Made by a program: the position numbers and the translations under genes
In this document: piece after piece, positions 45,538 to 47,597 of the stretch
Numbering within the stretch: the first letter of the stretch is position 1
How the letters are laid out: the number at the start of each line of letters is the position of its first letter
Sequence record: NC_049825.1
Strand: one strand, 5' to 3'
Origin: Escherichia phage grams
DNA length: 49,530 nt
The notes under the pieces: model-generated
Database searches by the model: none
Seen by the model: only the letters and a program-made list of their open reading frames with translations
What the model was told of the DNA's origin: nothing

Positions 45538-45579
45538 ACTTTTAATCATTAAAATATAAATATAAATCATCAATTTAAT

Positions 45580-45612
45580 TGGGCGTGGCATTTTGCTTCG
45601 CCCTTTTTTTAT
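45580..45612 (+). terminator. intrinsic terminator
   Basis: GGGCG...CGCCC stem plus T-run. Confidence 0.6.
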
Positions 45613-45683
45613 TCCTTTTTGTGCGTTCAATGGTTAGGATACAATCAATTAATTGTTGACTTTTATCTACAGGAGATCTAATT

Positions 45684-45899
45684 ATGAAAGATTTTTTAAA
45701 CGCTGCAACTTCCGGCACTGGCGGCGCGTCAATCACTGGCGCGGTAACTGGTCAAACAACTATTGCAATAGCCAGCTTCGTTTTGATGGCTGCATTTGGT
45801 ATGTGGGGCGCTTATCTTCGTTGGCGTGATAGTAAGGCGCTACGTGACGCGCTTGAATGCGGTGATATTAAGAAGGCTATTGAAATCAGGGGTAAATAA
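45684..45899 (+). CDS. holin (pinholin-like)
   Basis: 71 aa; Gly/Ala/Thr-rich hydrophobic segments; directly upstream of endolysin; RBS CAGGAG. Confidence 0.6.
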
Positions 45900-46387
45900 T
45901 GAGCATAAAACAAAGAGTGACCGCTGCGGCTTTTGGCGTTGCTCTTGCTCTTACTTCTCCATTACTGGAGGAAATAGAAGGAGTAAAATATAAGCCGTAC
46001 AAAGATATTGCTGGAATATGGACGGTTTGCGCCGGAATAACTGGACCTGACGTAATACTAGGTAAGACGTACACACAGAGAGAGTGCGATGCGCTACTGG
46101 CAAAGCATATCAAGATCGCAAAGGATGAAGTTGATAAGCGCGTGAAGGTTGATATTCCTGATACAATGCGCGCGGCAATGTATTCATTCACGTATAATGC
46201 TGGCACTGGTGCTTTTAGAAATTCAACCATGCTTAAGCTGATTAATAAAGGCCGTTACATGGAAGCGTGCGATCAGTTATGGCGATGGACCAAATACACC
46301 AATCCAAAAACAGGAAAGAAAGAAACGTCTAAAGGACTGCGCAACCGCCGCGCCGTGGAATTTAAATATTGCATTAAGGAACTGTAA
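45899..46387 (+). CDS. SAR endolysin (lysozyme)
   Basis: 162 aa; weakly hydrophobic N-terminal segment [17 protein letters not shown]; E-x8-D-x5-T catalytic spacing; sequence recalled as closely resembling phage 21 R. Confidence 0.8.
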
Positions 46388-46389
46388 TT

Positions 46390-46776
46390 ATGAGAAAGTT
46401 ATCAGTAATCGCGATCGCTGTTATCTTGTCTGGATGTTCAAGCGTTATGCCACTGACCGGATTGATAGGAAGCAAGCCTGAAATAACAGCACAGGCTGGC
46501 GCGGAGAACGTTAAGCAGACAGTTGGCGTTACCGCAAAGCAGGACGCCAGCACAAAACAGGAAACCACAATAAAGGAATCTGCGGTTGATAAGGTGGACA
46601 CGTCCAGCAAGAAGGATTTCACAACATCAACCATTCAGGCCAATACCATCAAGGCTGATAAAATCCAGGTCGTGCAGGGTAATAACGGCAGATGGTACGA
46701 CCCCGTAATCATATGCGTGGTTGTGTTCCTTGTGCTGATTTGTCTTTACTGGAGGGAAAAGAAAAAGGAGGCTTAA
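46390..46776 (+). CDS. unimolecular spanin
   Basis: 128 aa; N-terminal lipobox ILSGC and C-terminal TM helix VIICVVVFLVLICLYW, the arrangement described for T1 gp11. Confidence 0.7.
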   Translation: MRKLSVIAIAVILSGCSSVMPLTGLIGSKPEITAQAGAENVKQTVGVTAKQDASTKQETTIKESAVDKVDTSSKKDFTTSTIQANTIKADKIQVVQGNNGRWYDPVIICVVVFLVLICLYWREKKKEA

Positions 46777-46800
46777 CGCCTCCTTTATTTTTATGCGTCG
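46770..46800. terminator. bidirectional intrinsic terminator
   Basis: GGAGGCTTAACGCCTCC flanked by A-run and T-run. Confidence 0.7.
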
Positions 46801-47043: not shown

Positions 47044-47089
47044 AATATACCCGATACGAGATCGGGTGTTTTAACAAAAAGTGCTATTC
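47044..47089 (-). promoter_or_regulatory. conserved 22-bp element plus -10 (TATATT), leftward
   Basis: GAATAGCACTTTTTGTTAAAAC-N18-TATATT; spacer CCCGAT...ATCGGG dyad. Confidence 0.55.
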
Positions 47090-47204
47090 AATACGCTTTA
47101 CAGTAACCAACAAAACGCCGTCATCATCACACAAATTATGCTCTGATATATCAAACGCTCGCATGTCAGAATGAATGAGCGTTAACATTGCGTGCATGAA
47201 GTCG

Positions 47205-47597
47205 TCATGTGAGATTGAACTTACGGCGCAGAACTTCAATATTTTGTCTATTAGCATTTGACGTAAACAATTCTTCATCGCTCATTTCTCCGATCCGTAA
47301 AACATCCCTTACCCATTCGTTTTGCATACCTTCCAGGCTGTAAAGTTCAAACGAGAAAGGGCGATTTGCTGATCCTTTCTTACACCAGAACTTTCCACCA
47401 ACTCCATCAAGATAACCAGCGGTCATCATTCTTGCGCAAAATTCTTTTGAAACGGCAGTTGCAAACGTCCTCGGAGTAAATCCTGCGGCCCTTGCGAGCC
47501 GCTCACATTCTCTGTGCTGAAAGATAAATTTTGCTATATGTTGACGTGTAAACCACTCGAATGACTCACACCAGCGATACAGATCCAGAAGAAACAT
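47205..47597 (-). CDS. hypothetical protein (130 aa)
   Basis: ORF; start overlaps stop of upstream gene. Confidence 0.5.
   Translation of the reverse strand: MFLLDLYRWCESFEWFTRQHIAKFIFQHRECERLARAAGFTPRTFATAVSKEFCARMMTAGYLDGVGGKFWCKKGSANRPFSFELYSLEGMQNEWVRDVLRIGEMSDEELFTSNANRQNIEVLRRKFNLT

Follow-up and report, generated by a model that had tools for sequence, protein, structure and literature searches.

The window analyzed here is the 49,530 nt sequence of Escherichia phage grams (NC_049825.1), and the element under study is its region 45684–46776, for which a sequence-only reading had proposed a lysis cassette consisting of a 71-aa pinholin-like holin, an endolysin of the signal-anchor-release (SAR) type, and a unimolecular spanin (u-spanin). 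Three co-directional open reading frames (ORFs) on the plus strand, encoding 71, 162, and 128 aa, were found in this order and at exactly these coordinates in a program-made ORF list. The first (45684–45899) encodes a holin of the T1 gp13 family, matching PHROG 2877 (E 1.2e-35). The second (45899–46387) encodes an endolysin with a GH24/T4-lysozyme fold, matching PHROG 7 (E 4e-55) and Pfam PF00959 (Phage_lysozyme; residues 25–154, E 1.2e-37). The third (46390–46776) encodes a u-spanin of the T1 gp11 family, matching the Rz-like spanin family PHROG 1804 (E 1e-47). Because of these PHROG and Pfam matches, the three ORFs are no chance ORFs. The genes are closely packed, with a one-base overlap of the holin stop and endolysin start (TAATG, 45897–45901) and a spacing of 2 nt between the endolysin stop and the spanin ATG. 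A purine-rich ribosome-binding stretch can be read 5' of each start, which for the holin includes the Shine–Dalgarno sequence AGGAG (45672–45676, plus strand), 7 nt upstream of the ATG. The arrangement is syntenic with T1 and seven other Drexlerviridae cassettes. We interpret the locus as a three-step, T1-like lysis cassette (holin, SAR endolysin, and u-spanin) that forms one unit between two terminators, and assign a probability of roughly 0.88 to this reading.

The holin matches PHROG 2877 over positions 1–71 of 71, is 100% identical to the holins of phages damhaus, haarsle, and G29-2, and has homologues that all carry PF27028.1 in precomputed Pfam annotation (120 of 120 listed). No start codon lies between the preceding in-frame stop and position 45684, and the next Met is residue 35. 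A sub-threshold match to DUF3262 (E 1e-3) and a TatA match of a homologue were attributed to shared membrane-helix composition. Residues 4–45 form a single charge-free run of 42 residues, followed by a basic, amphipathic C-terminal tail. Two segments can be distinguished within this run. Segment 2 (residues 27–45; nt 45762–45818) is a clear transmembrane domain (TMD) with a conserved stripe of small residues (A28, S/G31, G39, G42, and A43), and segment 1 (residues 4–23; nt 45693–45752) is rich in Gly, Ala, Ser, and Thr (GAST). Compared to TMD1 of S21, the holin of phage 21, segment 1 has a per-residue Hessa value of 0.41 vs. 0.39, a Kyte–Doolittle (KD) mean of 0.63 vs. 0.52, and a GAST fraction of 0.75 vs. 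0.55. In 107 holin homologues, its 20 columns hold essentially no charge apart from scattered traces and match the rest of the protein in conservation, which argues for a membrane-compatible role.

The term "pinholin-like" in the sequence-only reading agrees with the published annotation of T1-type holins (PMC6139136, PMC11447400, and PMC13164509) and with the S21 TMD1-like composition of segment 1; as regards similarity to S21 and a modeled first TMD it found no backing, and it is the least secure part of the cassette reading. Several results weigh against it, and most of these equally favor an alternative in which the holin would be a single-TMD protein (N-out, C-in) and not a pinholin. Its N-segment would then never enter the membrane, and it might form large holes or act in another way. 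Release of the SAR endolysin would occur all the same, because any holin depolarizes the membrane. To begin with, no homology to S21 was detected: BLASTP with an S21 query 100% identical to the phage 21 record yielded no alignment at E ≤ 100, a profile comparison (hhalign, seven Drexlerviridae holins) gave a probability of 0.1%, and the window and T1 holins lack a match to PF04971, which S21 matches at 8.6e-36. A dual-start antiholin motif is also missing, as a second Met occurs within residues 2–8 in only 5 of the 107 homologues. The AlphaFold2 (AF2) model shows coil at residues 12–22 and one long helix at residues 23–58, and the GenBank record of T1 annotates gp13 as a single-TMD protein. 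Segment 1 has a Hessa sum of +8.2 kcal/mol, which is unfavorable for insertion. Finally, SAR endolysins also work with canonical, large-hole holins (N4 gp61, PMC12642591), so that a SAR partner neither proves a pinholin nor settles the hole size.

On the other hand, TMD1 of S21, a proven membrane segment that can exit the bilayer, is equally unfavorable for insertion (+8.6), and the near absence of charge from segment 1 across the homologues is hard to explain for a soluble tail. The AF2 model is of low confidence (predicted local distance difference test, pLDDT, 66.5; predicted TM-score, pTM, 0.36), which is too low to decide between one and two TMDs. Moreover, wherever genomic context could be judged, the holin family was seen only in T1-like genomes of 42–53 kb (phage collection of 824 records, and 126 matches from a search of 5.8 billion proteins), and 9 of 9 endolysins examined from these cassettes have a SAR-type N-terminal stretch; many of the metagenome matches are short contigs, and this search, which looked for neighboring soluble endolysins, is uninformative on hole size. 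In contrast to the T1 record, the prediction in a paper on phage TLS is two TMDs and a pinholin of class II. Operationally, a pinholin with its nanometer-scale holes is recognized by lysis with a SAR but not with a soluble endolysin, as applied to N4 gp63 (PMC12642591); in the literature found, there was no published test of this kind for T1-type holins, and their label rests on prediction. Taken together, we consider it moderately probable that the window holin is a functional pinholin, and we put a two-TMD topology like that of S21 at slightly short of even odds. The single-TMD, non-pinholin alternative is less probable and still a serious contender. An unlikely third option is that the gp13-family holins, confined to Drexlerviridae, might represent an independently evolved pinholin class, in which the strongly conserved, charge-free N-segment (consensus AAT..GG...TGAATGQ) would not act as an ordinary TM helix. 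It could be a flexible element at the membrane interface or in the periplasm, with a role in gating oligomerization of a single TMD or in contacting the short SAR domain of the endolysin. If so, this would imply timing control without a dual-start antiholin.

The second protein is very probably an R21-type (class II) SAR endolysin. Its best solved relative is the full-length endolysin R of phage 21 (R21; 3hde_A, E 5.9e-43), followed by DLP12 RrrD, and the R21 alignment starts at residue 3 and thus extends into the SAR region, in support of the family assignment made from the sequence alone. The E-x8-D-x5-T catalytic spacing held as well: E27 (45977–45979), D36 (46004–46006), and T42 (46022–46024) align with the R21 triad E35/D44/T50 and are invariant in 40 homologues. 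The SAR stretch (residues 7–23; nt 45917–45967) is the sole N-terminal charge-free run, follows K4 and R6, and ends three residues before the catalytic Glu27. It is weakly hydrophobic, as had been noted (KD mean of 1.84 vs. 1.98 for R21 and 1.94 for P1 Lyz). The description as Gly/Ala-rich did not hold; with one Gly and five Ala in 17 residues and 53% GAST, the stretch is rather Ala/Thr/Leu-rich. No Cys occurs within residues 1–26, which points to class II and not to class I of the P1 Lyz type.

These N-terminal features recur in 120 endolysin homologues having the catalytic motif. The uncharged run spans 14–20 residues (median 17), is preceded by one to three K/R and no D/E in all 120, and in 111 of them stops two to three residues short of the catalytic Glu. 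A run embedded in the bilayer would keep the catalytic Glu at the membrane, which is the geometry that the R21 mechanism needs. Consistently, the AF2 model (pLDDT 87.9) contains a continuous helix over residues 4–27 and superimposes with TM-scores of 0.81–0.84 on three of the four full-length R21 chains and on DLP12 RrrD (0.77 for the fourth R21 chain), vs. only 0.61 for truncated, SAR-less R21. For a homologous Drexlerviridae endolysin, 57_3Lys, a preprint reports azide-sensitive, i.e., SecA-dependent lysis (bioRxiv 10.64898/2026.09.09.750462), which indirectly supports Sec-dependent export. Nearly the same N-terminus as in 57_3Lys is found in the endolysin of phage 12469III, whose identity to the window endolysin is 50%. 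As a separate observation, four Cys of the endolysin (C44, C63, C124, and C158) are invariant in 40 homologues and also present in R21, so that the catalytic body may contain conserved disulfides in the periplasm.

Some features would also fit a cleavable Sec signal peptide, in which case the enzyme would be soluble in the periplasm and neither tethered nor released. The hydrophobic stretch is short, with only 17 uncharged residues vs. 24 in R21, and follows a basic n-region. Aligned Drexlerviridae endolysins conserve small residues at positions 13 and 15 (G/A-x-A), in principle a possible signal-peptidase site. According to the preprint on 57_3Lys, SignalP flags the N-terminus of that endolysin as a signal peptide. 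Against cleavage, the hydrophobic run extends beyond the candidate site and ends just before the catalytic Glu, which is awkward for a cleaved signal peptide, and it aligns with the SAR domain of R21, which is not cleaved. The SAR domain is reportedly required for the active fold of R21, and the model is closer to full-length than to SAR-less R21. In addition, a constitutively active secreted lysozyme would lead to premature lysis. We therefore regard a cleaved signal peptide as very improbable and favor an uncleaved SAR domain.

For the third protein, both features that had been proposed, an ILSGC lipobox and a C-terminal TM helix, were confirmed by careful alignment. It starts with MRKLSVIAIAVILSGC, comprising a basic n-region, a hydrophobic core of 10 residues, and the lipobox. 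The lipoprotein signal MRKLSVIAIAVI-LSGC covers residues 1–16 (nt 46390–46437), with ILSGC at residues 12–16 and Cys16 as the predicted acylation site. The +2 residue is Ser17 and not the Asp that serves as an inner-membrane retention signal. The motif L-[ST]-G-C is kept, as is the C-terminal TMD, in nine aligned Drexlerviridae spanins and in phage Snitter, and the lipobox of T1 gp11 reads LSGC (PMC6139136). The periplasmic domain (residues 17–104) is free of Cys, in keeping with a rule described for the T1 gp11 u-spanin family (PMC6139136), and the two remaining Cys, C109 and C118, both lie inside the C-terminal TMD. This TMD, PVIICVVVFLVLICLYW (residues 105–121; nt 46702–46752), is the most hydrophobic stretch of the cassette (KD mean of 2.94; Hessa sum of −2.4) and is followed by a REKKKEA tail. 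Lipobox, Cys-free domain, TMD, and tail all align with T1 gp11 and eight other Drexlerviridae spanins. The identity to T1 gp11 is 48% over 126 of 128 residues (E 6e-38), compared to a family threshold that asks for no less than 40% identity to a member across a minimum of 40% of the length (Kongari et al. 2018), which places the predicted protein in the T1 gp11 u-spanin family and bears out the comparison with gp11 drawn in the sequence-only reading. T1 gene 11 by itself complements a lambda RzRz1 defect, and the mechanism proposed for its product is fusion of inner and outer membrane after removal of the wall (PMC6139136).

Inspection of the ORFs in the cassette revealed neither an embedded or overlapping frame for an outer-membrane spanin (o-spanin) nor an ORF resembling an inner-membrane spanin (i-spanin); a lipobox-like LLSC belongs to a stop-bounded fragment without a start and was rejected as an o-spanin. 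That the third gene encodes an outer-membrane lipoprotein of another role, such as Cor-like superinfection exclusion, or an o-spanin in need of an i-spanin, as a weak PHROG match to Cor (residues 1–78; 46390–46623; E 5e-5; most likely reflecting a common lipoprotein signal and Ser/Thr-rich composition and not functional homology) and a weak NCBIfam spanin2 match below cut-off might suggest, is highly improbable in view of the full-length identity to a protein sufficient alone in complementation, the conserved TMD and basic tail, the position as last gene of the cassette, and the lack of partner ORFs.

Two further observations concern the evolution of the spanin gene. Many megablast matches to Hanrivervirus genomes end at ~46717–46720, inside the TMD codons, and the C-terminus (TMD and tail) is mosaic, as the protein of PGN590 is 96% identical over 128 aa, while those of G29-2 and herni match only residues 1–105. 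The position ~46717–46720 is thus probably a recombination junction. Furthermore, T1 gp11-family homologues in Autographiviridae (Klebsiella phage F19 and phage J8-65) are followed downstream by an unrelated holin and by an endolysin of greater length, which indicates that the u-spanin is exchanged between lysis cassettes without its partners.

From these components, a course of lysis can be proposed. By homology with R21, the catalytic domain of the endolysin would be exported by Sec via its N-terminal SAR domain. Burial in the bilayer of the weakly hydrophobic stretch, which ends three residues before Glu27, would keep the exported enzyme inactive and tethered to the inner membrane. Meanwhile, the 71-aa holin would build up in the inner membrane until the membrane potential collapses at a set time, possibly through the small holes of a true pinholin. 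The SAR domains would then exit the bilayer and refold onto the enzyme body, and the activated endolysin would degrade the cell wall. The spanin, with its lipid anchor at Cys16 in the outer membrane and its C-terminal helix in the inner membrane, would be restrained for as long as the wall is intact. After degradation of the wall, it would disrupt the outer membrane, probably by fusing both membranes.

The lysis unit is bordered by two predicted intrinsic terminators. On the left, the terminator of the upstream exonuclease unit (45581–45610, plus strand) consists of a hairpin at 45581–45603 followed by a run of seven T; it folds at −14.6 kcal/mol (z = −4.05, with none of 200 shuffles as good), and a hairpin with T-run is kept at this position in seven Drexlerviridae. 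On the right, a terminator scan of both strands identified a bidirectional terminator over the spanin stop codon (46764–46786), which is common to the cassette and the convergent minus-strand genes (−16.1 and −15.0 kcal/mol; z of −4.6 to −4.7; 0 of 200 shuffles as stable). One point weighs against a self-contained unit: neither a promoter scan nor a comparison with relatives revealed a convincing promoter for it in the 70-nt gap, where a partly conserved TAnnAT-like element at ~45635–45645 is a candidate −10 only. Consensus promoter sites were rarer than expected by chance (1 found vs. 4.2 expected). The single consensus site, the promoter-like TTGACT-18-AATTAT at 45656–45685, was rejected, as it overlaps the holin start codon and is conserved only in the closest relatives; if this site were active, transcripts would begin inside the holin gene and encode only endolysin and spanin.

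Regarding genome context, a 1.4-kb region of cassette DNA is 93–96% identical to the annotated Hanrivervirus phages damhaus, aaroes, Henu8, PGN590, and JLBYU09, and the two halves of the window each match phages herni and damhaus with 95–96% identity over 96–97% of their length. Judged by these matches, the window represents a nearly complete genome of the genus Hanrivervirus (Drexlerviridae, Tempevirinae). The T1-like assignment of the sequence-only reading is hence right at family level, and the genus is Hanrivervirus and not Tunavirus, to which T1 belongs. The flanks are the same as in T1, with a DNA-repair exonuclease upstream, separated from the holin by 146 bp (45538–45683), and a convergent small gene and a helicase downstream. 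Two antisense ORFs (45886–46230 and 46374–46634) were dismissed as shadow ORFs, with one weak PHROG match of unknown function and nothing else.

According to a recent report for Tunavirus, lysis modules of Drexlerviridae contain, as a widespread accessory, a standalone SH3-like (DUF7244) gene, in T1 represented by gp14. No gp14-type gene was found anywhere in the window by tblastn with five gp14 homologues (E > 0.4). In damhaus, JLBYU09, 011D2 (Tlsvirus), and Trimon (Webervirus), too, the corresponding position lacks this gene. Downstream of the cassette, a 64-aa ORF on the minus strand (47084–47278) is homologous to JLBYU09_81, for which GenBank OK272487 gives the label "putative unimolecular spanin." The ORF has neither lipobox nor TMD and matches only PHROG 9539 of unknown function, and this label is probably a misannotation. 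Lastly, about 20 records labeled as Campylobacter jejuni phages (e.g., MG065657, "Campylobacter phage C4") contain a T1-like cassette with a holin 87–97% identical to that of the window; for these enterobacterial-looking T1-like phages, the Campylobacter host labels look doubtful.

The cassette is thus an ordinary, already described T1-type lysis module, given its 93–96% DNA identity to annotated phages, and three papers (PMC6139136, PMC11447400, and PMC13164509) have previously described cassettes of the T1 family as a set of pinholin, SAR endolysin, and u-spanin. The value of the analysis lies chiefly in correct annotation, i.e., a T1-like Hanrivervirus with a standard Drexlerviridae lysis module. 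Beyond this genome, the prediction-based "pinholin" label of the T1 type has been copied across hundreds of phage genomes, and the holins concerned show no sequence relation to the only pinholin that has been studied well.

Among known systems, S21 resembles the window holin in its length of 71 aa, a charge-free stretch that could accommodate two helices, a GAST-rich and weakly hydrophobic first segment, a basic tail, and a gene position directly upstream of an R21-type endolysin. It differs in that there is no detectable sequence relation, that the window holin lacks a dual-start antiholin, and that its first segment is not predicted as helical; the resemblance is functional and compositional only. 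R21 (3HDE) and DLP12 RrrD (4ZPU) are ~47–48% identical to the window endolysin and share the triad, the four Cys of the enzyme body, and a basic N-region followed by a weakly hydrophobic, Cys-free domain that ends three residues before the Glu. Compared to R21, the window endolysin has a 6-residue deletion just after the shorter SAR stretch, a single Gly where R21 has GGG, and a 6-residue insertion near the C-terminus (NPKTGK region). The T1 cassette, genes 13-12-11 (NC_005833, 42878–43982), has the same gene order, protein sizes (71, 162, and 128–133 aa), and close-packed junctions, an annotated terminator over the spanin end, and matching exonuclease and helicase flanks, with protein identities of 59% for gp13, 65% for gp12, and 48% for gp11. 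Local differences from T1 are two only: the HNH endonuclease gene (gp15) and the small SH3-like gene (gp14), which lie between exonuclease and holin in T1, are absent from the window, and the spanin C-terminus is mosaic. Closest of all, damhaus, aaroes, Henu8, PGN590, and JLBYU09 carry the same holin/endolysin/u-spanin annotation and differ from the window by point changes and the mosaic spanin C-terminus.

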